Of a stretch of 64,000 bases of DNA, positions 751 to 63,413 are shown piece after piece (positions within the stretch are counted from its first letter, which is position 1; every line of letters starts with the position of its first letter). The notes below the pieces were generated by a model, which had not been told where the DNA came from, searched no databases, and worked only from the letters and a program-made list of their open reading frames with translations. This DNA comes from an uncultured Verrucomicrobiae bacterium (lineage in GTDB: Bacteria > Verrucomicrobiota > Verrucomicrobiia > Chthoniobacterales > JAFAMB01): the NCBI GenBank assembly GCA_963762565.1, contig CAVXLD010000001.1:198286-262285 (forward strand). The letters run 5' to 3'. The position numbers and the translations under genes are program-made.

Positions 751-792
751 CGGCGAACGGGCGAACAAACTGGTGGGGCGAAGCTCCAGATC
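751..792. repeat. Solo left end of a family-A element (degenerate) with GGCGAAC units
   Basis: cggcgaacgggcgaacaaac followed by tggtggggcgaagctccagatc (canonical: ggtggggcgaggctcccgaa). No convincing right end before the gatB stop. Confidence 0.4.
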
Positions 793-852
793 TTCCTAAA
801 AAGGTGAACAAGGCGATTGCTATTACCGAATCTATAGTAGCCAGCACCGAAC

Positions 853-7937: not shown

Positions 7938-7953
7938 TGCGCGCTTCTAGCTC

Positions 7954-14381: not shown

Positions 14382-14420
14382 CTTTGGCGTTTGGCGTGTC
14401 GGCGGACGGGACCGCAATTT

Positions 14421-14701
14421 GGTGGGGCGAGGCTCCCGAACGGAAGATGTACTTTCACAGCGCCCCTCGCTGAACCTCATGAGTTGTCGGCAACACCGAT
14501 GGACCGCCGAGCCGTCGGTCTGCAGCGTTTCAATACCCCGTTAGAATGAAGAACGTGCGTAGCAGATGCTTCAGATGCGCTGATTAGTTGTACGCGCTGG
14601 GACGCGGCTCGGCACGCCAATCGGCGAAACCTCGCGCGCAGTTTCGCAAAATCGAGCCTCTTTGTCGGAGATTTTAGGTCACTCGGGAGCCTCGCCCCAC
14701 C
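14421..14701. repeat. Family A element, copy A1 (281 nt)
   Basis: TIRs ggtggggcgaggctcccgaa (14421-14440) / tcgggagcctcgccccacc (14683-14701). Internal gccgagccg (14506-14514) / cggctcggc (14605-14613). GGCGTTT units on the left flank (14384-14405). Confidence 0.9.
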
Positions 14702-14847
14702 AACGTTGGGCCGCTACACGCGGATGCTCACAGATTCTTCCTCCGCATCCCATGCCGTAACCGACTCAAAATCAAGCAATTGCGTCTATTACGGCGACCC
14801 CCTTGCAGTTTCTGTGCCACTCTCCTACTATTCACTCACGACAACTT

Positions 14848-17019: not shown

Positions 17020-17034
17020 GGGGCCAGAAAAGTT

Positions 17035-17270
17035 GGTGGGGCGAGGCTCCGGAACTACGATTTTGTGTTCACAGGGGAGTTGATGCACTTAACCCAGCGC
17101 TCACAATTTCGATACGCTGCCGAGCCGCTGTTCTGTCGTGTGGCCGGCACCTTATTCCATGGGAGATCAGGGGAATCGGCTCGGCGGTCCTTCCGGCCTA
17201 ACGTTGCGTCCGGCGTCAAATCATCGAGGTCTCCGATATAGCGTCCGGTCTTTCGGGAGCCTCGCCCCAC
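17035..17270. repeat. Family A element, copy A2 (236 nt)
   Basis: TIRs 17035-17054 / 17252-17270. Internal 9-mers 17119-17127 / 17177-17185. Followed by cgtttcgcccattcg units. Confidence 0.9.
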
Positions 17271-17412
17271 TAATGCCCGCCGTTTCGCCCATTCGTTGCG
17301 TTTTGGTGGTTACAGTAATTGTTGCGTTCTTTCCGGTAGAAAAATCGGGAAAAGCAAGATAAAAATATAACGCCATCTCCCGCAGGCGTGTTATCATAAA
17401 GGCGATTGTATC

Positions 17413-19722: not shown

Positions 19723-19947
19723 ATGGTGATTGGTGATTGGTGGGGCGAGGCTCCCGAAAGGCCTTTTAGTCTTATCAAGCGGGTCAGTTCTCACCCGGAG
19801 ATTATGTCCGCTACGCCGATAAACCCGCCGAGCCGTTGGTCCACGCGAACCATGGCTCGGCAGCGTTTCGGCATAGGTCGTATCGTGGTGAGGATCTTCC
19901 CCCTGCCTTGCGATCGTCATCAGGCCTTTCCGGAGCCTCGCCCTACC
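19718..19947. repeat. Family A element, copy A3 with GTGATTG array on the left
   Basis: The array gtgtgaatggtgattggtgattgg contains the mglA stop. TIRs 19739-19758 / 19928-19947. Minimal central hairpin gccgagccgttggt-ccacgcga-accatggctcggc. Confidence 0.9.
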
Positions 19948-19994
19948 AATTACCCGCAGTTGCGCTTCTTGCCACCCTCATATATGTGTCCGAA

Positions 19995-21990: not shown

Positions 21991-22055
21991 TTCCCTGCCC
22001 TATTGACGCACCCGCCCCTCCGCGGGACGATGTTGGTAGCGGCCACAAACTGTCC

Positions 22056-25902: not shown

Positions 25903-26329
25903 TCGCCGTGTACGTATTCGCAGTGCCAGACAGACACACGACTCCATCCTGATTGCGCACAGTGGTGGCAAGCGTGCAGATCGGTTTGTCGTCACGAACA
26001 GTTGTGACTTCAACCCTGCCGGTAATCACATCTCCGACGTAGACTGCTTTAACAAACTTCCATTCTACCCCGAGAAACACCGTGCCGGGGCCAGGGAGAT
26101 CTTCGGCCACGATCGCGTTCAAAATTCCGGAAGTGATGCCTCCCTGAACGATCAATCCGCCAAACACTGATCTCCCAGCAACTTCGCGGTCATAATGTAA
26201 CGGATTCCGGTCGCCGGTGATCTCTGTAAATAGCGCGATGTCGCGCTCGCTGACTGTTCGGGATCGCTCTGCCGAATCGCCAACTCTCGGTTTCCCACGA
26301 ATTGTTCCCGCCCAACCGTCACTCTTCAT
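25892..26329 (-). CDS. MaoC-family (R)-specific enoyl-CoA hydratase/dehydratase
   Basis: 145 aa hot-dog fold. ITGDRNPLHYD motif. Confidence 0.85.
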   Translation of the reverse strand: MKSDGWAGTIRGKPRVGDSAERSRTVSERDIALFTEITGDRNPLHYDREVAGRSVFGGLIVQGGITSGILNAIVAEDLPGPGTVFLGVEWKFVKAVYVGDVITGRVEVTTVRDDKPICTLATTVRNQDGVVCLSGTANTYTAKLA

Positions 26330-26343
26330 GATGTGACCTCCGG

Positions 26344-26486
26344 ACTCGCCTTAGGCTCGTCCGCAATGACAAATGACAAATAACAGATGACAGATTGGGA
26401 ATTCCTTCGGTCACACGCATTTCTATTTCGGAGATTTGTCATTTGTAATTTGTCATCTGCCATTCCGAACGAGCCTCAGGCGAGTT
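26344..26486. repeat. Family F element, copy F2 (143 nt)
   Basis: Same layout as F1. Core attgggaattccttcggtcacacgcatttctatttcggag. The right end ccgaacgagcctcaggcgagtt supplies the stop of the ABC ATPase gene. Confidence 0.9.
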
Positions 26487-27231: not shown

Positions 27232-27243
27232 TGAACTCGCTGA

Positions 27244-27377
27244 GGCTCCTTCAAGATGACAATGACAGATGACAGATGACAAATGTCCGAAATAGACCGC
27301 GCGTGACCGAAGGATCTCCCAATCTGTCATCTGTCATTTGTCATTCCGAACGAGCCTCAGGCGAGTTCGGCTGATAG
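27244..27377. repeat. Family F element, copy F3 (core inverted relative to F1/F2)
   Basis: aactcgctgaggctccttcaagATGACAATGACAGATGACAGATGACAA, core atgtccgaaatagaccgcgcgtgaccgaaggatctcccaatc, then TGTCATCTGTCATTTGTCATtccgaacgagcctcaggcgagtt. Confidence 0.9.
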
Positions 27378-28230: not shown

Positions 28231-28524
28231 TTGTGTCCTGTCCCATAAGTAACATGGCTTTCGCCGTCGGCCAGTTGGCTGTTTTTCAAGGCGCGAGCGA
28301 AGCGCCCATATCTGGTTCATACGGGTCGAGCGAGCAACGCGGAAAAACAGCCAACTGGCCACGGCCCGGAGGGTTGCGATGAAAATGGGCCGGCGGCTGC
28401 GTTGCTCGTCGGTTACGTATCGATCAAGATATGCGCCCTCTACCGCCAGTCCGGCTCGGACCGCCTTGCCGGCGGCCCATTTTGATCGCAACGAAAGCCA
28501 TGTTACTTATGGGACAGGACACTA
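28231..28524. mobile_element. Family D MITE-like element, copy D1 (294 nt)
   Basis: About 33-nt TIRs: tgtgtcctgtcccataagtaacatggctttcg / cgaaagccatgttacttatgggacaggacacta. It fills the gap between the SBP stop (28522-28524) and the permease start (28216). About 96% identical to D2. Confidence 0.9.
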
Positions 28525-29649
28525 GTTGGCAGTCGCGATCCGATCCGCAAACGAGGGATCGAGCAATTCATTCACGATCCTGTCCACGTCGGTGTTGGGA
28601 TCGATGATTCCGTTCGCTTTCAAGGCGTTGGCGGAATCCAGAATAACCTGGCGCTGAGTCGCTCCGAGCCGCGAATCCTTCAGGTTGGTCCTTTCCCACA
28701 CCTTCTCCGCAACGGCCGGGCTTAATTGAGCCGCTGACTGTAGGATGGTACGCGCTTCGTCCGAATGATCCAGGCACCACAGGCGGGCTTTCTCATAAGT
28801 TCGGAGAACGCGCTCAGTAATATCCGGATGCTCGAAAGCGAAAGCTTCCCGTACGTTCAATACCCCGAAACTGTTCCAATCCGCTCGGCGAAAAAACAGC
28901 TTAAATCCCTTGTCGACCTCTAGCTGTGCCATGTACGGATCCAGCCCGGCCCAAGCATCGACCTGCCCCCGTTCCAACGCGACTTTGCCGTCGGGATGCT
29001 GCAAAGGTACAACCTGGATATCCTTTTCGCTCAACCCAGCGGAGGCGAGTGACCGCAAAAGAAAAATATGAGGATCAGTTCCGCGAGTCACGGCCACGCG
29101 TTTGCCACGCAGATCTTCGATCCGCGTTATTCCGGAGCTTGGGCTTGTTACCAGCGCGGTCCATTCGGGCGCAGAATAAACGTAAATCGCTTTGATTGGG
29201 TTGCCGTTTGCTCGCCCGATAAATGCCGCCGCTCCCGCGGTTGAGCCGAAGTCGACACTTTTGCCCCTTAGATACTCCAGCGCTTTGTTACTACCCAGGC
29301 TCTGCACCCACTCCACCTTGATGCCGCTTGAGCCCAGATCCTCCTCTAGCCATTTCTTGTCCTTGAGCACCAGGCTAATCGGATTGTAGTACGCCCAATC
29401 GACTCGAACGGTGTCGACGCTTCCGGCCTTGGAAAATTCGCCAAACCAGAGCGACCCAAACAAACACATAAGGGACAAAATCGAGCTCAGGCGACCTCGC
29501 CTCGGTGATGGCTTAGTTGTGTCACCGTACGCGCGAGGGGGATTGTACCTCGGGCTGCCATGCCTGGAAGATCGAAGTCGGACGGAAAGAATACTGTGCT
29601 GATAGGGTTTCACCCTCCCCATCTCTAGATGTAATCCGCCCGAACGCAA
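28522..29649 (-). CDS. ABC transporter substrate-binding protein, NMT1/SsuA-like
   Basis: Periplasmic-binding-protein pattern (VRVDWAYYNPISLVLK..., AVTRGTDPHIFLL). The start codon is uncertain, with several in-frame ATGs between 29469 and 29649. Confidence 0.8.
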   Translation of the reverse strand: MRSGGLHLEMGRVKPYQHSILSVRLRSSRHGSPRYNPPRAYGDTTKPSPRRGRLSSILSLMCLFGSLWFGEFSKAGSVDTVRVDWAYYNPISLVLKDKKWLEEDLGSSGIKVEWVQSLGSNKALEYLRGKSVDFGSTAGAAAFIGRANGNPIKAIYVYSAPEWTALVTSPSSGITRIEDLRGKRVAVTRGTDPHIFLLRSLASAGLSEKDIQVVPLQHPDGKVALERGQVDAWAGLDPYMAQLEVDKGFKLFFRRADWNSFGVLNVREAFAFEHPDITERVLRTYEKARLWCLDHSDEARTILQSAAQLSPAVAEKVWERTNLKDSRLGATQRQVILDSANALKANGIIDPNTDVDRIVNELLDPSFADRIATAN

Positions 29650-29688
29650 GCCGTTTCGCGCCTAGCGCAGGCGAGCCGGTCACGACTT

Positions 29689-29892
29689 GGAGGGGAGCCG
29701 CTTTGGAATTTTGCGGATCCGTAAGTTGGCAGCAAGCGGCTCCCGGGAACGGTCCAGGGCTGGGCAGCTCTGTGACGGCTTCAAATCGATGCTTGCAACC
29801 GGGTTCTTCCGCCGTGCCTCACATTGGGTAATTCCCGGGAGCCGCTTGCTACCAACCTACAGATCTGCCACGCTACAAAGCGGCTCCCCTCC
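29689..29892. repeat. Family B element, copy B2 (204 nt, double nested inverted repeats)
   Basis: Outer ggaggggagccgctttg (29689-29705) / caaagcggctcccctcc (29876-29892). Inner ttggcagcaagcggctcccgggaa (29726-29749) / ttcccgggagccgcttgctaccaa (29832-29855). Confidence 0.9.
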
Positions 29893-30018
29893 AGTCCTTG
29901 GGCGTGCGACGCCACCGGGCTGATTGCGATGACGAGAACGAAGATGATCGCGCCACAGTGATCACTCACTCCTTGCAAGCCCAGCAGCTCCAGGCCACGG
30001 TTTGGCAGACCTAAAGTT

Positions 30019-31053: not shown

Positions 31054-31345
31054 TTAGTGATTAGTGATTGGCGATGGCGCTGGTCGGGCGAGGCTCCCGA
31101 AAGAACTAAAGTCTCTAACGAAGATCCAGACGTTTCGGCCTGAAAGAGTTTGTTAGGCCGATCGGTGTGCCGAGCCGTGGTTCCGCGCGTAACCCGGCTC
31201 GGCGCGTTGCTAGAAGTAGCATGCCTTCTTAATTCGGAATGCGAAGGGAGATGGAAAATCACAGAGTCTTTCGGGAGCCTCGCCCTACCAACGGCGTCTC
31301 ATCCACCATCACCTCTCACCAATCACCAATCACTTCTCACCTTCT
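31051..31345. repeat. Family A element, copy A5 with inverted TGATTAG-type arrays
   Basis: The array starts on the aldo/keto reductase TGA stop. TIRs 31082-31101 / 31270-31289. Central hairpin gccgagccgtggtt-ccgcgcgt-aacccggctcggc. Right array atcaccaatcaccaatcact (to ~31345). Confidence 0.9.
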
Positions 31346-33564: not shown

Positions 33565-33858
33565 TAGTGTGCTGTCCCATAAATAACATGGCTTTCGCCG
33601 TCGGTCAGTTGGCTGTTTTTCAAGGCGCGAGCGAAGCGCCCATATCTGGTTCATACGGGTCGAGCGAGCAACGCGGAAAAACAGCCAACTGGCCTCGGCC
33701 CGGAGGGTTGCGATGAAAATGGGCCGGCGGCTGCGTTGCTCGTCGGTTACGTATCGATCTAGATATGCGCCCCTTACCGCCAGTCCGGCTCGGACCGCCT
33801 TACCGGCGGCCCATTTTGATCACAACGAAAGCCATGTTATTTATGGGACAGCACACTA
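33565..33858. mobile_element. Family D MITE-like element, copy D2 (294 nt)
   Basis: TIRs tagtgtgctgtcccataaataacatggctttcg / cgaaagccatgttatttatgggacagcacacta. About a dozen substitutions versus D1 and no indels. Confidence 0.9.
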
Positions 33859-33865
33859 GGAGCGC

Positions 33866-38767: not shown

Positions 38768-38817
38768 CCATGGAAGACATCCCCCAACCTGCCTTTGGCC
38801 GACGCAATTCGGACCCG

Positions 38818-39022
38818 GAGGGGAGCCGCTTTATCGTTAGGCAGCTCTGTAATTCGGCAGCAAGCGGCTCCCGAGAACGGCCCCGGATGATGCAGGTCTA
38901 TTGGGCAGCCATATCGACCAGCTTGGAACAGAGCCGCTGGGCAAATATTTACGCTGGGTTATTCCCGGGAGCCGCCTGCTGCCAACTGATAGGACTGCCA
39001 CACTACAAAGCGGCTCCCCTCC
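38818..39022. repeat. Family B element, copy B3 (205 nt)
   Basis: Outer repeats 38818-38834 / 39006-39022. Inner repeats 38853-38877 / 38962-38985. The right flank ctgggcatgcgacgcc resembles the B2 flank. Confidence 0.9.
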
Positions 39023-39068
39023 AGGCGCTGGGCATGCGACGCCGTGTTCTTAGAAGCACGAAGCGCAC

Positions 39069-39966: not shown

Positions 39967-40944
39967 TTGCTCAAAGATCCTATGCCGCCCAACCAAACGT
40001 TGATAGCGGAAGCTCCGGCGAAAAAAACGCCTGTCCCGAAAAGCTCTTTGCCTTCCGGGCTGCGCGCCGCCTATCGCAGCGGTATTCTGACGACGCTGCT
40101 TTTGTTTTTGCCTCCGGCGCTCGTGCTCTTCAGCATGTTCGTTATCCTGCCGGTCGGCGAAGCCAGCTATTTCAGCTTTTTTAACTGGAACGGGTACGGC
40201 CATCCCAATAAGTGGATCGATTTCGTAAATTATTTTCGCGTCCTGCGCGACCCGGTTTTTCTGCAGTCACTGGGAAATAATGGTCTGGTCATCCTAGTCT
40301 CAGCTTTTATTCAGGTGCCGCTGGCGCTCTGGGTAGCCCTTCTGATCTCCGATCGAAGCCGGTCCAGCATCGTGTTTCGGGCGATCTTTTTCGTTCCTTA
40401 CATACTGGCTGACGTCGTGGCCGGTCTGATTTGGCGTTATCTCTACGACGGTGATTATGGAATTGTCGGCACGATCTTTCGTTGGTTTGGGCGTGATGCC
40501 CCCGATGTCCTGGCAGAGACCGGGTGGGCGACAGCGGCGCTATTATTAGTCGTGGTCTGGAAATATTTCGGATTTCACATGGCGCTGTTCATTGCTGGAC
40601 GCCAAAACGTCCCCAACGACGTACTCGAGTCGGCGCGAATCGACGGCGCCAGCCGTTGGAACATTACCCGTTTCATAGTTCTTCCGCTGATGCGGCCAGT
40701 CATTGTTCTTTCTCTGTTTTTTAGCTTGCTCGGGTCTCTACAACTCTTTGACCTCATTATCGCGCTGACTGGTGGAGGTCCGCTCAATTCAACCCACTCG
40801 GCGGTCTCTTACCTCTACACGTTTGGAATCAGGCGGATGCAAGTCGGTTTTGGCAGTGCGGTCGGAGTTATCCTTTTTATTATCTGCGTTCTGGTCATGA
40901 TTTTCTATAAGCGCATCTTTATGCGGGAGTCTGCCTCCAAATGA
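39967..40944 (+). CDS. Carbohydrate ABC transporter permease
   Basis: 6-TM MalF-type permease with the EAA-like loop ESARIDGASRWNITRFIVLP. Start uncertain (39967 or 39982). Confidence 0.85.
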   Translation: MLKDPMPPNQTLIAEAPAKKTPVPKSSLPSGLRAAYRSGILTTLLLFLPPALVLFSMFVILPVGEASYFSFFNWNGYGHPNKWIDFVNYFRVLRDPVFLQSLGNNGLVILVSAFIQVPLALWVALLISDRSRSSIVFRAIFFVPYILADVVAGLIWRYLYDGDYGIVGTIFRWFGRDAPDVLAETGWATAALLLVVVWKYFGFHMALFIAGRQNVPNDVLESARIDGASRWNITRFIVLPLMRPVIVLSLFFSLLGSLQLFDLIIALTGGGPLNSTHSAVSYLYTFGIRRMQVGFGSAVGVILFIICVLVMIFYKRIFMRESASK

Positions 40945-41762
40945 AATCCCTCTTCAGTTACTATCGATGGTTGGTCTTGCTTCTGGTAGCGAGTTTTTGC
41001 CTGGTTCCATTGTGGGCAACCGTCGTGGGTGGGTTTAAGTCGACGGGTGACCTCCGTACGAATGCTCTCGGCTTGCCCCGGCAGTGGCTGGTAGACAATT
41101 ATATTTCCATCGTCTCGACTCCGCGGTTTTGGCAGATGCTTTGGAATTCGGCTGTGATCGCCTTTTTCACGGTCGTACTAACATTGATAGTCAGTTCACT
41201 AGCTGCATATACTCTAGCTCATTTGCGCTTCGCTGGGCGCAAATGGATCGCCAACTACCTGACCCTGGGACTGACTTTCCCGTTCGCCACTGCAGTCTTG
41301 CCAGTATTTATTCGGGTTCGCGATCTCGGCCTGCTCGACACCTACTGGGGCGTCATCCTCCCCCAAGTCGCCTTTAACTTAAGCTTTAGCATCGTGTTGC
41401 TGCGCGGTTTCTTCTCAGAGTTACCAAAGGAATTGTTTGAAGCTGCGATCATGGATGGTTGCAGTTATCCACGAATCTTTTTGCGCATTACCCTGCCGCT
41501 CTCTCGCCCGATCCTGGCCACTGTCGGCGTTCTGGCTCTGGTCGGAAGCTGGAACAACTTCCTTTTGCCATTGGTTACCATCAATGACGACTCCGTTTAT
41601 CCATGGCCTTTAGGAATCATGCAGTTTCAAGGTCAATACAGCACCGACTGGGGGAAGGTGCTGGCTTTCGTAACCCTCACCATGCTTCCCGCTATCACGC
41701 TGTATCTGATGGCCCAGAAACAGGTCATTGCCGGCCTTACTTCGGGAGCCGTTAAGGGTTAG
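40941..41762 (+). CDS. Carbohydrate ABC transporter permease
   Basis: MalG-type permease with the loop EAAIMDGCSYPRIFLRITLPLSRP. ATGA overlap with the upstream permease. Confidence 0.85.
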   Translation: MKSLFSYYRWLVLLLVASFCLVPLWATVVGGFKSTGDLRTNALGLPRQWLVDNYISIVSTPRFWQMLWNSAVIAFFTVVLTLIVSSLAAYTLAHLRFAGRKWIANYLTLGLTFPFATAVLPVFIRVRDLGLLDTYWGVILPQVAFNLSFSIVLLRGFFSELPKELFEAAIMDGCSYPRIFLRITLPLSRPILATVGVLALVGSWNNFLLPLVTINDDSVYPWPLGIMQFQGQYSTDWGKVLAFVTLTMLPAITLYLMAQKQVIAGLTSGAVKG

Positions 41763-41897
41763 CGTTTGGCGTTTGGCGTTCGGCGTTGGCAGTTGGTAGC
41801 GCTCGAGCTCAGTAAGCGGTTTTCTTCTACATAGCGCTCATTATTTTGGGACGACCACGGCCGCCTTTCACCTTTCACTTCTCACTGATCACTAACC
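41763..41897. repeat. Hybrid array element G2 (GGCGTTY array left, CCTTTCA/CTNATCA array right)
   Basis: cgtttggcgtttggcgttcggcgttggc starts 1 nt after the permease stop. Right side cctttcacctttcacttctcactgatcactaacc. The two arrays are not complementary. Confidence 0.7.
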
Positions 41898-42296
41898 TTG
41901 AGCATTGGACACAAACCATTCACACTCCTACCCATGGCCGAGCTCACAACCTATCTCTTCCCTGCTGTCCAAGGATTGTTTTGCCTGATCGTAGCCGTGG
42001 TATGGCTGATCGGGTTTATTCGTCAGCGAAACATCGGTTTTTTGCTATTGACCCTGGCGACGCTTGCCGAAGGTGTAACCAGTCCAATCCGGCAGGTGCT
42101 AATCAATTACGTGATCTTTCATGAGTCTCATCTCTCCGCTGCAGAACGGTCGACCGCCCTTGCAACGATTTCCTACACGATTCTTGGTTTTTACATCGTG
42201 TTTTGGCTGGTTACCGCCCTCGGCGCGACGTTGGTGGTGTTCCATCGATCAAAACATCAGATAGCTCCCGGACCAATTCCTCCCGTGTCTGGTTAG
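41898..42296 (+). CDS. Hypothetical membrane protein
   Basis: 132 aa with about four hydrophobic helices. TTG start, so the start is uncertain. Confidence 0.4.
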   Translation: MSIGHKPFTLLPMAELTTYLFPAVQGLFCLIVAVVWLIGFIRQRNIGFLLLTLATLAEGVTSPIRQVLINYVIFHESHLSAAERSTALATISYTILGFYIVFWLVTALGATLVVFHRSKHQIAPGPIPPVSG

Positions 42297-42317
42297 ATCG
42301 ATCGCACATAAATAGCG

Positions 42318-42349
42318 TTGGCGGTTTCGCACCGCTGCGAAACCGCCAA
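42318..42349. terminator. Hairpin between convergent genes (candidate bidirectional terminator)
   Basis: ttggcggtttcgca-ccgc-tgcgaaaccgccaa is a 14-bp perfect stem. It lies between the 41898-42296 (+) stop and the 42391-42897 (-) stop. The flanking U-tract is weak. Confidence 0.5.
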
Positions 42350-42390
42350 GTCGGCTACTCCTGAAAAACTGGAGTCAGGTTAAAGGGTTC

Positions 42391-42897
42391 TTATTTGCGC
42401 TCAACCTTGACCTTGCGGCCGGTTTGATGGTCGAGATAGATCTCCTTGTTTCCCTTTTTCTCGATCAGTTCATACCGGCTTGGGGCCTGTTGAACTTCCT
42501 GCGTGGTAACCACCGCATCGTCGCCAGTTGATTCTACCACCGTGCCTGGCCGCTCAGTGACCACCGTGTTAGGCCGCTCGGTGGTGGTTGTCGTGGTAGT
42601 CTCCCGCACGCCGCCCGCTGGGGCTTGCAGAATGGAGCCAGTCGGTGACACGTAAATCACTTGCTGACCCGAGTCACCCATGTACGTCACGGCATACTCT
42701 CCTCCGGTGTCCTGGACCACGCGTACTACTTTCGTCGGAGACGCAATTCTTGTTTCTCTAATCACCGACGATTGGACAACTTGGGGCAGGGTTGTGAATT
42801 GAAGCACCTCGTCAGCTTTCGCGATCCCAACGAGTGATACACCTACTCCGGCAACGGCGATAAGACGTGTTACGTTTGTCATTAATTGATCTTTCAT
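42391..42897 (-). CDS. Secreted protein, PepSY-like, paralogue of 43023-43940
   Basis: Signal peptide. QFTTLPQVVQSSVIRE...VVRVVQDTGGEYAVTYMGDSGQQVIYVSPTGSI aligns with the neighbouring gene. The C-terminal YELIEKKGNKEIYLDHQTGRKV motif is shared. Confidence 0.5.
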   Translation of the reverse strand: MKDQLMTNVTRLIAVAGVGVSLVGIAKADEVLQFTTLPQVVQSSVIRETRIASPTKVVRVVQDTGGEYAVTYMGDSGQQVIYVSPTGSILQAPAGGVRETTTTTTTERPNTVVTERPGTVVESTGDDAVVTTQEVQQAPSRYELIEKKGNKEIYLDHQTGRKVKVERK

Positions 42898-42910
42898 TTT
42901 TGCAGTTGGC

Positions 42911-42938
42911 GTCTCGCGCCAATCTGGTGACGCGAGAC
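42911..42938 (-). terminator. Short GC hairpin between the two tandem paralogues
   Basis: gtctcgcg-ccaatctggtga-cgcgagac is an 8-bp stem, downstream of the 43023-43940 stop. Confidence 0.3.
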
Positions 42939-43022
42939 TAGCCTTTACTCTTTCTATTTCGCAGACGGGACAGTTCTTGGATCTATCTCCAGGCCATCAC
43001 TGCTGCTGGTTTTTAGATTCGA

Positions 43023-43940
43023 CTAAGAACCCGGCGAGGGTTTCGCTTTGCTCTTGGATTTGTCCTGAGACTGGGATTTCTCCTGAGACTGTTGTTGTTC
43101 GCCAGGAGTCCGGCTTGTTTGATGCTGCTCCTTGTCGCCCTGGTTCTCCTTCATGTTGCGCTGATCCGCATTCTTTTCATCGGTCCGCGGATTTCCTGAG
43201 GTGTCACGAGTTTTCTGCTCTTGACCATTGCCAACGCGCTCTTGGTTCCCTTGATCCTTTTGTTCTCCCCGACTCACATTATGCTGAGTCTTCTGCTCCT
43301 CCCTCATATTCTTGTTGGCTTCCTTGGCATTGCCTTCGTCGGTTTTTTCGCGCATAGCGCCCGACTGCTGATCTTTGTCTTCAGTACGAACGCTACCCTT
43401 GTTCTCTTGGTCCGTTCGGACATTGGTTTTATCCGTCTCGTTCGTTCGGATATTCGTTTTGTTTTCTTCCGTAGTCCGACCGCCGCCCCGCGAAACTTCA
43501 CTAGCGCCACCTTTGACGATCACTCTCTTGTTGGTCTGATGATCGATATAGATCGCGTCTGGTCCCTGGTCTTGCACGAACTCGTAACGTTCACCCCCGC
43601 TCCGGATCTCATCCATTGTGATCGTCACTTCCGACGATCCCTGTCCGCCTTGTTCGATCACCGTGCTCGGCCGCTCGACGATGGTTCCATCCGCGTTGAC
43701 GTAGACGATCTGGTCTCCGCTATCCGTCAAAACCGTGATTTCGTAGATATTGTCCGGCTCTTCCACAACGCGGACAACCTTCTCCGGGCTTACGATATTG
43801 TAATGATGAAAAACAGTTGTCCGAACTACCTGTGGCAAGGTGGTGAATTGGATCTCTTTTTTAACCTCTTTTGCTTCCGTGGCCGCACACAGACAGAGAC
43901 CGAGTGCACAGGCCGCGATAATATACTTTGTTCTATTCAT
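43023..43940 (-). CDS. Secreted protein, PepSY-like N-terminal half plus ~150-aa charged disordered tail
   Basis: Signal peptide ACALGLCLCAATEA. QFTTLPQVVRTTVFHHYN...EITVLTDSGDQIVYVNADGTIV. The tail is rich in K/E/Q/N/R/T with short repeats (TNIRTNETDKTNVRTDQENKGSVRTEDKD). Confidence 0.5.
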   Translation of the reverse strand: MNRTKYIIAACALGLCLCAATEAKEVKKEIQFTTLPQVVRTTVFHHYNIVSPEKVVRVVEEPDNIYEITVLTDSGDQIVYVNADGTIVERPSTVIEQGGQGSSEVTITMDEIRSGGERYEFVQDQGPDAIYIDHQTNKRVIVKGGASEVSRGGGRTTEENKTNIRTNETDKTNVRTDQENKGSVRTEDKDQQSGAMREKTDEGNAKEANKNMREEQKTQHNVSRGEQKDQGNQERVGNGQEQKTRDTSGNPRTDEKNADQRNMKENQGDKEQHQTSRTPGEQQQSQEKSQSQDKSKSKAKPSPGS

Positions 43941-44211
43941 TGGCTTTCTCTTTGATTTACTTCTCTCCCGCCGTACCGGACTCCGAGCCGGGACAGTGAC
44001 TCCCCTGTAGTAGGTATCGCGGTCCCGTCGCCGGGCGGATCTGTAAGATTGCTTTTACGAGAAGCGAAAAGATTCGCTGATCGAGGTAGAACGCGATGCG
44101 GATGCTTGTTTACTCGCGTGGCAACGACTAGACCGCCGGGTCAACTCGCTGCAATTTACTGACAAGAGAATTAACTACAGGATGCTTCCCGACTACCTCG
44201 AGAATCAATGC

Positions 44212-46607: not shown

Positions 46608-46648
46608 GTAAGAGCGGAACGTAACACAGCATTACAAATAACCAAGCT

Positions 46649-46894
46649 GGTGGGGCGAGGCTCCGGAATAACCTGAAATGGCAAACGGAGAACTCGATTT
46701 AGTCTAAACCGAGATCGCGCTTCGCCAATGGGCGCGCCGAGCCGATCCCAGCGTGTGGCAGCCGACGATCGGTCAGGGGGGGTGGAACATGCTGGGACCG
46801 GCTCGGCGCGTTTAGCGGCATCGCCCACGATAGATTGGCAAACATTGACGTCCTCCGCTCGAGCAAAGCGGCCGTTCGGGAGCCTCGCCCCACC
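46649..46894. repeat. Family A element, copy A6 (246 nt)
   Basis: TIRs 46649-46668 / 46875-46894. Internal 9-mers 46736-46744 / 46799-46807. Confidence 0.9.
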
Positions 46895-46902
46895 AACGCC
46901 TC

Positions 46903-47328: not shown

Positions 47329-47340
47329 TCCATTTAATTT

Positions 47341-47422
47341 CACCACAGAGAGACAGAGGACACAAAAGCCAAAATTCGGTTTCCCTTAGGATGACCTTTG
47401 TGTCCCCTGTCTCTCTGTGGTG
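47341..47422. repeat. 26-bp-stem hairpin downstream of clpX
   Basis: caccacagagagacagaggacacaaa (47341-47366) pairs with tttgtgtcccctgtctctctgtggtg (47397-47422), with one mismatch and a 30-nt loop. Confidence 0.85.
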
Positions 47423-47425
47423 AAA

Positions 47426-48694
47426 TTAAGCGGCGTCCTTGTCCTGCTTCCTGCGAATTAGAGGAGCTCGTTTGCCCTCAACCACGGCCCGATTGATCAC
47501 CACGTCAGCGATGTCTTCCCGGCTCGGAACGTCGTACATAACGTCGAGCATGATTTTTTCGAACATGGAACGAAGCGCACGCGCCCCAGTTCCTTTGGTG
47601 GCCGCCTGTTGGGCCAACGCCCGGAGAGCGTCCTTAGTAACCACCAAGTTCACTCCCTCCATCGCCAATAGTTTGGTGTACTGCTTCACCATCGCGTTCC
47701 GCGTGTCGGTCAATATCAGGATTAACTCTTCCTCGGTTAAGGTATCCAGCGCCGTCACAATCGGTAACCGGCCGATGAACTCCGGTATCATCCCGAAGGA
47801 GAGCAGATCTTCGGGTTCGGTATGCCGCAAGGTATCACGCAACTGGAGGTCTGAGGAACTGATTTGAGGCGAATGAAAACCGAGTACTCGGTTCCCTAAC
47901 CGTCGATTAATCAGCCGGTCTAACCCCACAAAGGCTCCGCCGCAGATAAACAAAATCTTTTCCGTGTTAACCTGGATATACTCCTGGTGAGGATGCTTTC
48001 GTCCACCTTGAGGCGGGACATTGCAGCTGCTTCCTTCCAAAATCTTCAGAAGCGCCTGCTGGACGCCCTCACCGGAAACATCGCGGGTAATACTGACGTT
48101 ATCGGTTTTACGGCCGATCTTATCTATTTCATCGATATAAACGATTCCAATCTCGGCTCGTTTAACGTCGTAGTCAGCATTCTGCAGGAGCCGCAAGATG
48201 ATATTCTCGACGTCTTCCCCAACGTAACCGGCCTCGGTCAACGTCGTAGCATCAGCGATACAAAACGGCACATCCAGAATTCGGGCTAGTGTCCTGGCCA
48301 GGAGCGTCTTTCCGCACCCAGTTGGCCCGATCATCAAAATATTGCTCTTTTCAATCTCGACGTCAGCGTATGGATCGAGGGATAGATCCTTGGTCGGGTT
48401 GGCGTTCAGAATCCGCTTGTAATGGTTGTGGACGGCCACGGAAAGGACCTTCTTGGCCGAATCCTGCCCAATCACATGCTGATCGAGTTCGCGCCTGATC
48501 TCGACTGGCTTCGGCACACGCAGCGTTGTGGTCTGCCGTCGGGCGTCCTCGTTTAGCTCTTTATCGAGGATGCCTTTACAAACGTTGATACAATTATCGC
48601 AGATGTAGACACCCGGCCCGGCGATCAATTTGCGAACCTCTGCGTGGCTCTTTCCGCAGAAAGAACACATCGTCAGATTAGAGGCCCGGGCCAT
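47426..48694 (-). CDS. clpX: ATP-dependent Clp protease ATP-binding subunit ClpX
   Basis: N-terminal zinc ribbon CSFCGK...CDNC, Walker A GPTGCGKT, and the IGFG-like loop region. Confidence 0.97.
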
Positions 48695-50746: not shown

Positions 50747-50796
50747 GGAAACTTAGCGAACGCCAAGCCTAGACCTGATCCCGTATCGGGGCAAGA

Positions 50797-50992
50797 GGGC
50801 GAATAGGCGAAACGGCGAGTGGGTCAATGGGCGAAAAGGCGACAACGCGTCAGAATCATCTCTGAACGCTATGGCAGAAAACTCGACGGTCTCGCGACAC
50901 GAGTTGCTGTTTCAGACAAACGCAGCGGTTTTGAGCCGTTCCGCGGGCACCCTCGCCGTATCGCCCTTTTCGCCCACTCGCCGTTTCGCTCC
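50797..50992. repeat. Array-bracketed element H2 (GGCGAAN arrays)
   Basis: Left gggcgaataggcgaaacggcgagtgggtcaatgggcgaaaaggcgac. Right cctcgccgtatcgcccttttcgcccactcgccgtttcgctcc. 107-nt core. Confidence 0.8.
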
Positions 50993-51007
50993 CGCGTCCG
51001 GAAACGT

Positions 51008-53710: not shown

Positions 53711-53727
53711 GGGAAAACCTAGAATAA

Positions 53728-53886
53728 GAAACGAGCGAGAACGAGCGGAAACGAACGAGAAAGTTCGGAAGCGAGGATTGGCGGGGCGAGGCTCCCGCAG
53801 GACCCTGCGCGACGCCAGGGTTTAAGGCAATTCGATTCCGGATGTAATGTTAGGCCGAAACAAGCGCCGAGCCGCTCGTTTCTCCT
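53728..53886. repeat. Family A half element A7 (left half only) with GAACGAG arrays
   Basis: gaaacgagcgagaacgagcggaaacgaacgagaaag array, TIR ggcggggcgaggctcccgca (53780-53799), a 66-nt arm, gccgagccg (53866-53874), then immediately ctcgtttctc. Confidence 0.75.
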
Positions 53887-53919
53887 GGCTGAAAGCCGAA
53901 ATTCGGGCAATATAGGCGA

Positions 53920-54834
53920 ATGCGTTTGCGCGTGGCCGTAGCTGTACTGGGTTTCTGTTTTATTCAGGCTTTCTCGGCAACTGCATCGCTTCCTTTCAGC
54001 ACCGTTTTCAAAGGCGAACCAATTTTTGATTTATTGGTGCGCAGAGCCGAGCAAGAAGGCTGGCGTTCGCGACCATTGGGTGAGCGAATGGTTTTGGTCG
54101 GGAAAGCTTTACTGGGCACGCCATACCGCAGCTTTACCTTGGAAATTGACGATCACATCGAAGCACCTTCGGTCGATTTCCTCGGCATGGATTGTTGGAC
54201 CTTTTACGAGATCGCTCTCGCATTCTCCAGAATGCTCGAATTGAAATCGAGTGCGTACAGTCCCCAGGATCTCTTGTCCATCATCGAGCTGGATCGTTAC
54301 CGAGGTGGACACTGCAATGGTCTCTACACCTCGCGTTTGCACTTTCTTGAGGACTGGATTTACGACAATCAGAGGCGCGGTTTGGTCCAGAATATGACCG
54401 TCAGTCTAGGCGGGGTTCCGATGCGCGGCCGCTATCTCAACGAGATGAGCAAGTATTGGCGTAGCTCGCGGTATTTGCGGAACAATCCCAATCTGATTCC
54501 GGTGATCCGCAACATGGAAGAAACCGTAGCCTCTCGCCCGATTTACCATATCCCGAGAGACCGGGTCGCCGCCATCGAGCCTAAGATTCGAAGCGGTGAC
54601 ATCATCTGCATCACCGGCCGGGGACCCGAAGGATTTACCGAGCACGTCGGGATTGCTTATCGAGACGGCGTCGGCGTTCTGCATTTCATGCATGCGTCCA
54701 AGGACGAACACCAGGTCATGATTGATGTCGCTCTGCATCAATACGTCTACCGGTATCGTAAATTCGCCGGCATCATGGTAGTGCGGCCCGTTGATTTATC
54801 GCCGGGCGAGGAGTCGCATGTCGCAGCCAACTAG
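53920..54834 (+). CDS. DUF1460-like (amidase-like) secreted protein
   Basis: Signal peptide. The LLGTPYRSFTLE...DCWTFYEIALAFSRM pattern is as I recall for DUF1460. Not verified. Confidence 0.55.
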   Translation: MRLRVAVAVLGFCFIQAFSATASLPFSTVFKGEPIFDLLVRRAEQEGWRSRPLGERMVLVGKALLGTPYRSFTLEIDDHIEAPSVDFLGMDCWTFYEIALAFSRMLELKSSAYSPQDLLSIIELDRYRGGHCNGLYTSRLHFLEDWIYDNQRRGLVQNMTVSLGGVPMRGRYLNEMSKYWRSSRYLRNNPNLIPVIRNMEETVASRPIYHIPRDRVAAIEPKIRSGDIICITGRGPEGFTEHVGIAYRDGVGVLHFMHASKDEHQVMIDVALHQYVYRYRKFAGIMVVRPVDLSPGEESHVAAN

Positions 54835-54883
54835 TCTGGTGGTTATCCATTCGTGGTTCGTAAACGGCCAGAGGTGGTCCGGC

Positions 54884-55200
54884 AGTAAGCGGTAAGCAGT
54901 AAGCAGTGGTCAGTACTACGAGCTAAAATCCAGGAGCTAGGAGGGCCGACGGCTGTGGAGCGTGCCTCGCTTGCGAGTCCGTGGTGAGCAAGGCTCATTA
55001 CGTGACATCCCCATCGTCGGCGTACGCTCTTTTGTCTGAAGAGGCAAACCTTGCGATACAGAGCGCTGACCGACATAGGGCATGTGTCGTGGTTCACCCT
55101 TGCTCTCCAACGGCCTCGCAAGCGAGGCACGCTCCACGGCCGTCGCCCCTCCTAGCTCCTAAATTCTAGCTCCTAGCTCCTAAACTGCTTACTGCTTACT
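54884..55200. repeat. Family E element, copy E2, with two nested layers of inverted arrays
   Basis: AGTAAGC units then AGCTAGGAG units on the left. TIRs 54955-54993 / 55098-55137. CTCCTAGCT units then GCTTACT units on the right. Confidence 0.9.
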
Positions 55201-55238
55201 TTCGCGCCATCACCCAAACGCTCGCTAACGCTCGATTT

Positions 55239-55832
55239 ATGGGCCATACTCCCCCCATGGCAGCGACACCTTCTATGATGGTAGAGCTAGGGCGCAAAGC
55301 TCCTGATTTTCACCTGCCGGATGTTGCAGATGGCAGGATGGTTAGCCTCTCCGATTTCGGTCCGGATCAGGCATTACTGGTGATGTTCATCTGCCGGCAC
55401 TGTCCTTACGTTCTGCACGTGAAGCCGGAACTGGCCCGGCTCGCAACGGATTACCAGGAAAAAAGCGTCGGGATTGTCGGAATTAGCTCCAACGACGCTC
55501 AACATTATCCGGATGACGCACCGGATAAGCTGGCTGAGCTGAGCCGGGATCTGGGCATTCCGGTTCTCTACGACGAAAGCCAATCCGTTGCCAAAGCGTA
55601 CCAGGCCACTTGCACACCCGATTTTTTCGTGTTCGACGGAAATCGGACGCTGGTTTACCGGGGCCAGCTTGATGACAGCCGGCCCGGGAACAGCCGGCCG
55701 TTGAACGGCCGCGATTTGCGGGCCGCTCTAGATGCAGTCTTAGCCGGACGCGTAGTCGACTCTACTCAGCGCGCCAGCATCGGTTGCAACATCAAATGGA
55801 AACCGGGGAACGCTCCCGATTATTTCCGTTGA
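55239..55832 (+). CDS. Thioredoxin-fold (AhpC/TSA-like) protein
   Basis: CRHCPYV redox-type motif within a thioredoxin-fold pattern. Confidence 0.7.
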   Translation: MGHTPPMAATPSMMVELGRKAPDFHLPDVADGRMVSLSDFGPDQALLVMFICRHCPYVLHVKPELARLATDYQEKSVGIVGISSNDAQHYPDDAPDKLAELSRDLGIPVLYDESQSVAKAYQATCTPDFFVFDGNRTLVYRGQLDDSRPGNSRPLNGRDLRAALDAVLAGRVVDSTQRASIGCNIKWKPGNAPDYFR

Positions 55833-55999
55833 CCCGCGCGGCCTTCGTTTAGGGGAGCCGGGTCAAATTCTTGGCCACGACCATTTGCGGGGAACGATTT
55901 GCTCCCAATAATGTTCACTTGAACATATTTTACAGCCGTGCATGTTAACCCATGCACTCGTCGCCACCGCCAAATCTTTCAGGCTGGGGTGAAAAGATC

Positions 56000-57037
56000 A
56001 TGGGCCGCGGTTCAAGCATCAATCCAGTTAACCGCTTTGAACCATTGCATTATGATTTGGATGAATGGTGCGATCCGCCATCCCAGCCGCACATCCGCAC
56101 TCAGCTTTTTCGCGACGACACTCAGAGTATCATCGCGCGCAACCAAAGTCCGGATGTCGGTTTTGAAACCAGCATCAATCCGTATCGAGGATGTGAACAC
56201 GGCTGTGCTTATTGCTACGCCAGGCCGACCCATGAATATTTAGGGTTCTCCGCCGGCATCGATTTCGAATCGAAAATACTGGTTAAGTTAAATGCCGCGA
56301 CGCTGCTCGCGGCCGAATTAAATCGGCCTGGTTGGCAGCCGCAAACGGTGACCATGAGCGGCGTAACGGATTGTTATCAGCCAATCGAACGCAAACTGAA
56401 GATCACGCGTTCCTGTCTGCAGGTGCTGGCCGATTTCCGCAATCCAACCTTCATCGTCACCAAAAACCATCTGGTCACCCGGGACATTGATTTGCTCGCA
56501 AGCCTGGCTGCACACAGAGCGGCCGGAGTCACGGTCTCAGTAACCACGCTGGACGCCGGTTTGGCTCAAAAGCTCGAACCACGAGCATCGAATCCGCGGT
56601 CACGCCTGGCCGCGATCCGGGAGCTAGCGAGCGCTAACATCCCGGTTGGCGTTAACGTCGCTCCGATTATCCCGGGTTTAACCGACCATGAAATACCGAG
56701 CATTCTGACCGCCGCGGGTGAGGCCGGCGCCCAATTCGCCTATTACACGATTGTGCGTCTACCCATGGCGGTATCGACGATCTTCATTAACTGGCTGGAA
56801 ACCCACTTCCCGGATCGCAAAAATACGGTTCTTCGCCGGATTCAGTCGATGCGCGGCGGGAAACTAAACGAATCGGTATTCGGCAAACGGATGCGCGGGG
56901 AAGGGATCCTGGCCGACCAGATCCGCCGGATTTTCGAAGTTGGCTGCCGCCGGGCCGGCATAAAACAGGATCATGTGGAGCTCAGTACAGAGGCGTTTCG
57001 AAGGATAGAACCGAACCAGCTAGGATTGGATCTGTAA
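56000..57037 (+). CDS. PA0069-family radical SAM protein
   Basis: MGRGSSINPVNRF N-terminus and the CEHGCAYCYA CxxxCxxC cluster motif. The ATG at 56000 is preferred over the track start at 55952. Confidence 0.8.
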   Translation: MGRGSSINPVNRFEPLHYDLDEWCDPPSQPHIRTQLFRDDTQSIIARNQSPDVGFETSINPYRGCEHGCAYCYARPTHEYLGFSAGIDFESKILVKLNAATLLAAELNRPGWQPQTVTMSGVTDCYQPIERKLKITRSCLQVLADFRNPTFIVTKNHLVTRDIDLLASLAAHRAAGVTVSVTTLDAGLAQKLEPRASNPRSRLAAIRELASANIPVGVNVAPIIPGLTDHEIPSILTAAGEAGAQFAYYTIVRLPMAVSTIFINWLETHFPDRKNTVLRRIQSMRGGKLNESVFGKRMRGEGILADQIRRIFEVGCRRAGIKQDHVELSTEAFRRIEPNQLGLDL

Positions 57038-57046
57038 CCTCGGATT

Positions 57047-57194
57047 GGTGAGCGAGGCTCCGGCACGACAAAATGCATTGCCAAACCCAGCGATAGGCCC
57101 GGCTCGGCGAGCTGTGCAGCGTTGCACCGGTCAAGTAGGGGCAGCATAGCGGCTTTGCGAAAATCGATCGGTCGTTCGGGAGCCTCGCCCTACC
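57047..57194. repeat. Family A half element A8 (left TIR joined to right half)
   Basis: ggtgagcgaggctccggca (57047-57065), only cggctcggc (57100-57108), a 66-nt right arm, and TIR ttcgggagcctcgccctacc (57175-57194). Confidence 0.75.
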
Positions 57195-57243
57195 ACGCTC
57201 GTTGACGGCGTCGTGTTGCCATGCATACCTGACCCTTCGTCCT

Positions 57244-61026: not shown

Positions 61027-61035
61027 AGGGTTTTT

Positions 61036-61317
61036 GGTAGGGCGAGGCTCCCGAACATCCCGACATCTTCGCAACGCCGGGGATGATCTTCTACCAGTGT
61101 ATTAACGTGGCCGATCAGCGCGCCGAGCCGTTGGTCCCAGCGAGTTCCATGACCCACAAGAACGGATCGAAGGTTTTTAAAAGTTCTCGCACGTCGAAGC
61201 GGTTAAATCAGCGCTGGGTAAATCGGCTCGGCGGGCAGACCGGGGCTGGACGCGTTTAATCCAAAAAATCACGGGCCCTGCGAAAGTGCATTCGTAATTC
61301 GGGAGCCTCGCCCTACC
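61036..61317. repeat. Family A element, copy A9 (282 nt)
   Basis: TIRs ggtagggcgaggctcccgaa (61036-61055) / ttcgggagcctcgccctacc (61298-61317). Internal 9-mers 61122-61130 / 61224-61232. Confidence 0.9.
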
Positions 61318-61370
61318 CCCCTCGCAGAGTCCTAGCTAACCAGGACGATTCTGCTACCATAGCCGCATCA

Positions 61371-63092: not shown

Positions 63093-63125
63093 TGTAGACA
63101 TGGACCCGGAAGGGGGAGACACCCG

Positions 63126-63335
63126 GAGGGGAGCCGCTTTGTCAGACGCTAGCTGTGTTCGGTCGGCAGCAGGCGGCTCCCGGGAATAGCCCAGCGCGTT
63201 CTATTTATCCAGCGCCTACTTCGTTGAAGCACCGACACGGACAGAGCCTATAGAGCTGGATTACCTGGCAGACGTTACCGGGAGCCGCCTGCAAGCAACC
63301 GATAGACCTGCCAACTTACAAAGCGGCTCCCCTCC
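63126..63335. repeat. Family B element, copy B4 (210 nt)
   Basis: Outer repeats 63126-63142 / 63319-63335. Inner tcggcagcaggcggctcccgggaa (63163-63186) / ttaccgggagccgcctgcaagcaa (63275-63298). Confidence 0.85.
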
Positions 63336-63342
63336 GGCGCCG

Positions 63343-63413
63343 CGTCGCCGATACGCCCATTCGCCCTTTCGCCCGTTCGCCGATACGCCCACACGCCGAC
63401 ACGCCCATACCCC
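63343..63413. repeat. One-sided NTTCGCC-type array upstream of cdsA
   Basis: cgtcgccgatacgcccattcgccctttcgcccgttcgccgatacgcccacacgccgacacgcccatacccc. No mirrored partner on the left of B4. Confidence 0.7.

Follow-up and report, generated by a model that had tools for sequence, protein, structure and literature searches.

Half elements of a head-to-head repeat family in a Verrucomicrobiota genome as probable remnants of REP/REPIN-type dimers

The 64,000-nt stretch analysed here (hereafter "the window"; uncultured Verrucomicrobiae bacterium, GenBank assembly GCA_963762565.1, contig CAVXLD010000001.1) carries an intergenic repeat, family A, whose full copies consist of two inverted half units, and which is represented near 53.8 and 57.0 kb by two half elements (elements 1 and 2). 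Family A is most probably a REP/REPIN-type repeat of Verrucomicrobiota, and both half elements the decay products of full dimers that once stood at the same sites. This reading draws on features that were observed directly, namely the dimer-of-units anatomy, the tag at the outer ends, the bracketing of a transposase gene in relatives, intact dimers at the orthologous loci, and microhomologies at the junctions. The half elements are then ordinary decay products, and the repeats a known kind of bacterial junk-like DNA.

Each half unit of about 110 nt comprises an outer strand tagged with GTAG or GTGG (TGGTRGGGCGAGGCTCC), a variable arm of about 66 nt, an inner strand (GCGCCGAGCCG), and a short extension, and two such units placed head to head with the tags outside make a dimer of 205–300 nt. 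In relatives, the same architecture flanks a single-copy, syntenic gene for a REP-associated tyrosine (HUH/Y1) transposase, which, in the mechanism we propose, would mobilise and maintain the dimers via single-stranded hairpin intermediates, without target-site duplication. Dimers would then erode: at 53.8 kb, a deletion between CCG repeats would have taken the loop, the right half and a little flank, and at 57.0 kb a deletion between CACGAC repeats would have taken the arm and inner motif of the left half along with the left part of the loop, both probably through replication slippage across the hairpin. Long palindromes are prone to slippage deletions.

Half units and their head-to-head arrangement

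Loci were collected in two motif-anchored scans, the first with a pattern that fixed TGGT upstream of the core of the outer terminal inverted repeat (TIR) and the second with one that did not; all figures below are samples of the matches listed, not censuses. Halves from the window and 107 public genome contigs, the right ones reverse-complemented, were aligned to derive a consensus, and a half-unit profile made from that alignment was used to build an nhmmer catalogue over 227 fetched loci (designated by L numbers) and the window. Overall, 55 halves, left and reverse-complemented right, align to a single consensus, tTGGTgGGGCGAGGCTCCcGAAcGACC...C.g.G...TAGGCCGa....GCGCCGAGCCG..(ccagcg). The distance from outer repeat to inner motif is 85–89 nt on each side in all full copies, and the loop between the two inner motifs varies in length. 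The catalogue holds at least 92 inverted pairs, with total lengths clustering at about 205–222, 240–250 and 270–300 nt, along with 17 complete solo halves and 8 arm-truncated halves; the 92 pairs compare with 39 unpaired matches, many of which are cut by contig ends. Hosts, among the matches listed, are nearly all Verrucomicrobiota metagenome-assembled genomes (MAGs; Pedosphaerales/Limisphaerales-like and Chthoniobacterales).

Arms of unrelated family-A copies are homologous but strongly diverged (mean identity 0.57, maximum 0.67), and the two arms within one element, at 0.51–0.66, are no closer to each other than this background. Family A is thus a head-to-head heterodimer of a unit of about 110 nt, not a palindrome copied from one arm, and the same values rule out homogenisation of the arms by concerted evolution or snap-back copying. 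An initial annotation of this stretch had raised the possibility that a half unit of about 100 nt, doubled head to head, makes up the full element. The analysis bears this out: left and right halves share one consensus, an element's two arms resemble each other no more than unrelated arms do, complete solo halves are present in many genomes, and halves bracket a tyrosine-transposase gene in relatives. Half elements are not as common as full ones, however, the ratio of complete solos to dimers being about 1 to 5.

The outer ends of the units carry the GTAG or GTRG tag of the REP superfamily. Among the 344 cores listed, the tag before the GGCGAGGCTCC core reads TGGTGG in 136 and TGGTAG, CGGTAG or AGGTAG in 103; in the window, GTAG is found at 57195 (minus strand), 19949, 31291 and 61035, and GTGG at 14420, 17034, 19738 and 46648. 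The conserved strands are strongly over-represented in the window, where the 12-nt TIR core has 15 matches that are exact or differ at one position, and 17 with up to two mismatches (9.0 expected; 17 reached in 0 of 100 shuffles), and where GCCGAGCCG occurs 13 times (1.3 expected). As in REPINs, the units are mainly arranged as inverted doublets that fold into one hairpin, and full dimers fold far better than their shuffles (z -5.5 and -8.0).

A short variant of the unit was detected in other MAGs, in which the conserved strands abut (GGTAG-GGCGAGGC-TCCT-GCCGAGCC), whereas in the long variant they lie about 70 nt apart. The short variant has the layout of a classical GTAG REP with an 8-bp stem (z -3.7), GGTAG-GGATGAGC-TCCT-GCTCATCC, which directly adjoins several family-A dimers on their outer side. 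By analogy, the "TIR" and the "central motif" may form the two sides of a REP-like stem, separated by a loop that has expanded to about 70 nt. In one Verrucomicrobia MAG (L034 6070–6720), five tandem short-variant-like hairpins alternate with CTTACC/CTCAGCT arrays at a period of about 136–137 nt, resembling a REPIN cluster.

Orthologous loci and the origin of the two half elements

Both half elements are present where the initial annotation had placed them, and ENA and NCBI assemblies of the window's species (99.9% identity) carry both. Element 1 is a complete left half (53778–53874) composed of a TIR, a 66-nt arm and GCCGAGCCG. In its TIR, a degenerate GTRG-type tag, TTGGCG where most copies have TGGTGG or TGGTAG, precedes the GGGCGAGGCTCC core. 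CTCGTTTCTCC stands directly after GCCGAGCCG and is the reverse complement of the unit of the array flanking the element on the left, and the region folds into an 11-bp stem in which 53727–37 pairs with 53872–82. Element 2 (57045–57195) consists of a degenerate left TIR, then 36 nt, then a complete right half. Half-unit hidden Markov model (HMM) matches cover 53778–53882 (model positions 2–108, E 1e-15) and 57195–57092 (model positions 3–108, E 2e-15), neither with an adjoining partner half. The segment of about 34–36 nt between the left TIR of element 2 and CGGCTCGGC is the right-hand part of the original loop, not the start of a left arm. We also rejected the reading of the sequence that follows the left TIR (20 nt from 57064) as arm, the resemblance being the CACGAC microhomology itself.

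The two elements lie in a syntenic block that we compared in relatives whose AmiA-like protein is 98%, 92% and 91% identical. At locus 1, the YqeY / AmiA-like spacer, L240 carries a full dimer, the window and L234 carry the solo left half, and L237 has only the array followed by CTCGTTTCTCC; the left flank array is kept in L234, L237 and L240 whether or not the element is present. A strain variant, L232 (99.8% identical downstream), opens with the right half CGGCTCGGC, its arm and GGGAGCTTCGCCCCACCA, then GAGTTGGCCGTTCC-CGCTCGTTTCTCC. L232 is a 1.1-kb Logan contig whose first 113 nt could conceivably be a mis-join at a repeat, although the full dimer of L240 at this position argues otherwise. 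The junction in the window reads GAG[CCG]CTCG, with CCG common to both sides: in L232 it is part of the sequence ...GGCCGTTCCCG outside the right TIR, and it also ends GCCGAGCCG. The deletion spans the loop, the whole right half and about 11–14 nt of flank.

At locus 2, the radical SAM / EamA spacer, full dimers are found in L240, L234 and L235, and the window aligns to them with a single gap running from just past the left TIR to mid-loop. In L234, CACGAC occurs at both gap edges, once directly behind the left TIR and once within the loop (..CCATCACGACAAAATG..). The arm of element 2 is 96% identical to its orthologue in L234 and 73% identical to those in L240 and L237, the latter having lost the left half through different deletions. 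At locus 3, the redoxin / radical SAM spacer, a full dimer is present in L237, and a further independent deletion has left L240 with a left half, 11 nt and a right TIR, a mirror image of element 2; nothing recognisable of family A is present at this locus in the window. Because relatives hold full dimers at these sites and the junctions fall on direct repeats, the two window objects represent independent microhomology deletions of separate dimers. They are not the "reciprocal" halves of the initial annotation, in the sense of products of one event, since L240 has a full dimer at each locus. The same observation, together with the housekeeping genes between the halves and the conserved synteny, led us to reject a single split or composite element whose ends would be the two halves, with the intervening 3.2 kb enclosed.

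Two further observations were made at these loci. In L234 (7165–7245), the left TIR and arm are duplicated in tandem immediately upstream of the full locus-2 dimer, and the left TIR remaining in the window is orthologous to the outer copy of this duplication. At locus 1, the arm of the window's left half (53778–53874) is 70% identical to the right-half arm of L240 (3707–3946), above the 0.67 maximum of unrelated arms, and only 57% identical to the left arm of L240; judging from these alignments, the element may have flipped between lineages.

The central GCCGAGCCG/CGGCTCGGC pair had initially been suggested as a cleavage or recombination point. For these copies the orthologues show instead two unrelated deletions on short direct repeats. 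HUH transposases such as those of IS200/IS605 and TnpA_REP cut beside hairpins, and a site-specific event at the central hairpin (e.g. by a tyrosine transposase acting at the foot of a REP stem) would yield the halves as direct products; one breakpoint of element 1 indeed lies exactly at the 3' end of GCCGAGCCG. The other, however, lies outside the element, 11–14 nt beyond the right TIR, and of those of element 2, one falls where TIR and arm meet and the other in mid-loop, 36 nt away from the central motif that remains. The L237 and L240 derivatives have yet other breakpoints, and every resolved junction displays 3–6 nt of microhomology, typical of slippage. In a long-variant transposase locus (L245; see below), the right TIR was likewise lost between TCGG repeats. 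A site-specific origin of the halves is, in our view, distinctly unlikely.

Breakpoints were also compared across 25 unpaired halves whose contigs extend at least 250 nt beyond the inner end. The inner ends of the profile matches fall at model positions 33–55 in 8 of these and at 92 or beyond in 17, with none between, which differs from breakpoints spread uniformly within one half (binomial p 1.6e-5). Complete halves in this number, 13 of the 17 without a trace of the partner's inner motif, are what cleavage at the centre would leave. However, against breakpoints uniform over the whole dimer, 17 of 25 is unremarkable and only the absence of partner remnants stands out: by an estimate from lengths (215–290 nt), a complete half would survive 55–69% of terminal deletions in any case. 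The inner ends are not random, and the resolved junctions lie in the loop or at edges of the conserved strands, which suggests that module boundaries are favoured, with no single site used.

Alternatively, half units could themselves be mobile, the window copies having inserted as singlets and dimers having formed by a second insertion beside the first. Such a process would fit the unrelated arms of each heterodimer, the solo halves that stand beside an unrelated 45–130-nt module between mirrored arrays in L066, L070, L156 and L162, and the equal conservation of solo and dimer halves. We consider it very improbable for the two window elements, given that the missing half is found at the same site in both closer and more distant relatives at either locus, that the retained sequences are orthologous (arm identities above) with microhomology at their junctions, and that dimers outnumber complete solos about 5 to 1. 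Solos may also arise from module exchange or hybrid dimers, and not every solo need be a deletion product.

A tyrosine transposase and the class of family A

The fetched loci were screened for HUH...Y motifs and compared with an E. coli RAYT sequence. Two open reading frames (ORFs) lie exactly between family-A ends, one in L153 (long variant) and one in L049 (short variant), and both match the NCBIfam model NF047646, REP-associated tyrosine transposase, at E about 1e-18 (5.6e-19 for L153). In L153, the halves bracket a 152-aa ORF with HLH...YMKMNPVRAG, corresponding to the HUH and Tyr motifs. The best PDB match of the transposase ORF is the E. coli TnpA_REP 4ER8 (E 7.8e-8), with both motifs aligned, and the homologues examined are 64–81% identical, several being named RayT by JGI. 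Long-variant halves bracket the gene in nine further contigs (L241–L248 and L250), with the left half about 75–105 nt upstream and the right half about 29 nt downstream, and short-variant repeats flank a homologue in L049 and L249. The gene is single-copy and its synteny is conserved, between a glycosyltransferase/methyltransferase pair and uvrA. Relatives hence have a cognate HUH/Y1 transposase with inverted flanking units, as REPINs do, and this is the REPtron/TIRtron arrangement (PMC3733652; PMC3116915). Because a RAYT gene sits between left and right halves in relatives, family A would be a REP/REPIN-type (or "TIRtron") family, not a miniature inverted-repeat transposable element (MITE) of the DDE type. 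By analogy with TnpA_REP and IS200/IS605, we infer that the transposase moves family-A repeats via single-stranded hairpins, and the window's own genome presumably encodes it.

If family A were a classical TIR-bounded MITE that goes back to a DDE-transposase insertion sequence, with halves as ordinary truncated copies, it would likewise display 21-nt terminal inverted repeats, a length of 200–300 nt and multiple intergenic copies. We regard this as exceedingly unlikely. No target-site duplication was seen by eye in the flanks of the six full window copies, no parent DDE element with the same TIRs was found, the sole coding element found between family-A ends is the Y1/HUH transposase (ten contigs), and the ends bear GTAG or GTGG tags. 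Extragenic location without target duplication is, in turn, typical of REPs, and all nine window copies lie between long ORFs.

This location also bears on whether the elements serve mainly as RNA or DNA structures with a function of their own (terminators, mRNA stabilisers or protein-binding sites, for instance), with the halves as functional variants. Five of the six full window dimers stand between co-directional genes, 8–38 nt past an upstream stop codon, the arms drift whereas the TIR and inner motifs hardly vary, and REPs are known to be co-opted functionally (PMC3733652). Element 1, in contrast, lies between divergent genes, Rfam 15 covariance models at gathering thresholds have no match anywhere in the 64-kb window, and presence, absence and truncation differ among very close relatives at three syntenic loci while the genes are unchanged, which makes a mainly structural role highly implausible as an explanation.

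Several observations nonetheless weigh against the REP/REPIN assignment or the deletion origin. At 68.5 bits, the NF047646 score falls short of the curated cut-off of 80, Pfam returned no match for the transposase ORFs, and no transposase gene lies within the 64-kb window. The unit, at about 110 nt, is much longer than classical REPs of 20–60 nt. The fold of a lone half unit is no better than that of its shuffles (z +0.69 and -0.19), and the same holds for the short variant, which has a central GA/GA mismatch (z -0.58). The empty site of L237 at locus 1 may reflect loss or a site never occupied, so that polarity can be read both ways. The complete solo halves without partner trace and those next to unrelated modules belong here as well, as does the HMM score of solo halves (n=17; median 56.6 bits), which is indistinguishable from that of dimer halves (n=179; 55.8; Mann-Whitney p 0.92): the greater decay of singlets predicted for REPINs (PMC3116915) was not seen in this small sample.

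Because single-half and short-variant folds are not significant, reading the unit as a REP hairpin with an expanded loop rests on architecture, not on thermodynamics. A more speculative version, which we consider rather unlikely, would make the half unit a GTAG REP hairpin whose 4-nt loop expanded into a length-constrained arm of about 66 nt with sub-motifs of its own, and which the transposase would cut at the stem foot; position 53874 would then be an enzymatic boundary, not a slippage product, and REPINs would preferentially enter, flip within and leave existing palindromes (mirrored 7–8-nt arrays, other REPs). If true, this would explain why near-identical lineages differ at the same syntenic sites, where empty, full and half states, and possibly an inverted one, are seen.

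With this assignment, a repeat family that stands out in soil and freshwater Verrucomicrobiota joins the REP/REPIN-tyrosine-transposase class, and its truncated copies are readily explained. The YqeY / AmiA-like / redoxin / radical SAM / EamA block, in which three intergenic sites vary between empty, full, half and half-plus-TIR among lineages of 91–100% protein identity, provides a compact natural series for the gain and erosion of REPIN-like palindromes. To our knowledge, nearly all work on this process has been done in Proteobacteria. Family-A repeats also matter for annotation, as they break short-read assemblies (L232 begins inside one) and seed spurious small ORFs.

Feature map, neighbouring repeats and known systems

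Table 1. Coordinates of family-A copies, their parts and mirrored arrays in the window
Feature	Position	Strand	Remark
Left flank array, degenerate 8–10-nt units (AAGAAACGAGCGAGAACGAGCGGAAACGAACGAGAAAG; GAAACGAGC-like)	53726..53763	+	Outside repeat proper
Outer terminal repeat (TIR) of solo left half, TTGGCGGGGCGAGGCTCCCGCA	53778..53799	+	
66-nt arm, solo left half	53800..53865	+	Variable among copies; family sub-motifs GACC..., CCAGGG, TTAGGCCGAAA
Inner conserved motif GCCGAGCCG, end of half unit	53866..53874	+	
Deletion junction, CCG microhomology	53872..53874	+	
CTCGTTTCTCC, mirrored copy of left flank array	53875..53885	+	Flank, not element
Degenerate left terminal repeat TTGGTGAGCGAGGCTCCGG	57045..57063	+	Sole remaining piece of left half; 1 mismatch in 12-nt core
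Deletion junction CACGAC	57064..57069	+	
Right-hand part of original central loop (36 nt)	57064..57099	+	Aligns with full-dimer loops of L234, L235, L240
Inner conserved motif of right half, CGGCTCGGC on + strand	57100..57108	-	
66-nt arm of right half	57109..57174	-	
Right terminal repeat TTCGGGAGCCTCGCCCTACCA	57175..57195	-	GTAG tag on - strand
Full family-A dimer	14420..14703	.	284 nt
Full family-A dimer	17034..17273	.	240 nt
Full family-A dimer	19738..19949	.	212 nt
Full family-A dimer	31081..31291	.	211 nt; mirrored GTGATTR arrays both sides
Full family-A dimer	46648..46896	.	249 nt
Full family-A dimer	61035..61318	.	284 nt
Weak fragment: left TIR, one mismatch, and about 45 nt of arm	771..834	+	Model positions 2–66, E 0.001
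Mirrored short arrays	7795-7950, 21775-21994, 24776-24939, 25756-25902, 26339-26486, 27299-27370, 31040-31078/31300-31347, 41754-41806, 50790-50997, 54880-54915/55150-55200, 63337-63412		

Tandem arrays of 7–8-nt units recur in the window as mirrored pairs around different palindromic elements. Their units include GTGATTR, GGCGTTY, TCGCCCWT, TGTCATYT, GCAGTAAG and CTCCTAG, and the same vocabulary is found in unrelated MAGs (L006, L061, L065, L089, L109, L114 and L226). Among 86 family-A dimers, flanks are mirrored beyond the TIR in 29, and strict 6–9-nt periodicity (at least 0.65) was detected in 3. In L186 (10857–11010) the nesting order is reversed, with a family-A TIR pair surrounding mirrored TTCAAAG-type arrays and neither arms nor inner motifs. 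Other dimers (in L224, L208, L170, L157 and L016) are flanked by a GTAG REP, GGTAGGGATGAGCTCCTGCTCATCC (8-bp stem, TCCT loop), in inverted pairs directly outside the dimer, i.e. as nested REPs; a search for this REP in the 64-kb window returned nothing.

The window contains further repeats. A second palindromic family (29684–29913, 38810–39043 and 63121–63356), in which each half is a hairpin (GGGGAGCCGCTT...AAGCGGCTCCC) and the two halves are inverted, resembles a further REPIN-type family. The interval between the two half elements holds a third palindromic element (54916–55176; 67-nt arms, 90% complementary, 127 nt apart) flanked by GCAGTAAG and CTCCTAG arrays. A TGTCATT-array hairpin cluster occupies 25757–27370, with 85-nt arms at 25789–25873 and 27261–27345 (92% complementary, 1387 nt apart). 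A 293-nt direct repeat (28233–28525 and 33567–33859; 96% identity) recurs 5.3 kb apart, and 47334–47429 holds a 38-nt inverted repeat with a 20-nt loop (92% complementary) that is unrelated to family A. AT skew reaches -0.27 to -0.28 only at 40001–44000 (4 kb) and elsewhere in the window stays within about ±0.09.

Among known systems, bacterial TIR MITEs (Correia/NEMIS, ERIC and RUP) share with family A their size, terminal inverted repeats, intergenic multi-copy distribution and frequent truncated copies. These MITEs are tied to DDE transposases and make target duplications (TA for Correia), whereas family A has neither. IS200/IS605 elements and their miniature derivatives (PATEs) resemble it in having a related HUH/Y1 transposase and gene-less miniatures; their transposition is single-stranded, hairpin-dependent and free of target duplications. 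However, IS200/IS605 ends are different subterminal hairpins, whereas family-A ends are inverted copies of one unit, and the family-A transposase groups with the REP-associated enzymes.

The closest parallels come from REP-type families. Our literature searches for verrucomicrobial repeats and RAYTs returned only PMC3733652, and neither the exact family-A sequence nor its long-arm form of Pedosphaerales/Limisphaerales-like MAGs. There, the GTAG/GTGG tag defines a large REP superfamily (Di Nocera et al.) in which the verrucomicrobium Opitutus terrae is rich, and GTAG REPs, head-to-head dimers, TIR-flanked tyrosine transposases and REP dimers within palindromes are described (PMC3733652). Family A agrees with this superfamily in its outer GTAG, or GTGG as in O. 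terrae GTAG-20, and in the predominance of head-to-head dimers with tags outside, along with hybrid and palindrome-embedded dimers. It may also resemble TIRtrons/TIRYT (PMC3733652) in combining a tyrosine transposase with longer TIRs and dispersed single, dimeric or grouped TIR copies; family-A TIR copies were seen as singles, dimers and a 5-copy tandem group (L034). The TIRtron motif GGGGWSAS agrees with GGGGCGAG in the 21-nt family-A TIR at 7 of 8 positions only.

REPIN/RAYT systems (Pseudomonas fluorescens SBW25; E. coli REP/BIME with TnpA_REP 4ER8) and family A have in common inverted doublets forming one long hairpin, extragenic location without target duplication, a single-copy syntenic HUH/Y1 transposase gene with inverted flanking units, and singlets as deletion remnants; REP singlets have been described as remnants of doublets, by deletion (PMC3116915). 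Unlike REPIN/RAYT repeats, family A has a unit of about 110 nt, not 20–60 nt, its conserved strands are split by a variable arm of about 66 nt in place of a short loop, its arms are highly diverged within a genome with no identical "master" copies in the sample, and its singlets are not measurably more decayed than doublet halves. Taken together, in its tag, doublet arrangement, transposase and lack of target duplication, family A behaves like the REPIN/RAYT families and probably like the TIR-flanked tyrosine-transposase families of PMC3733652.

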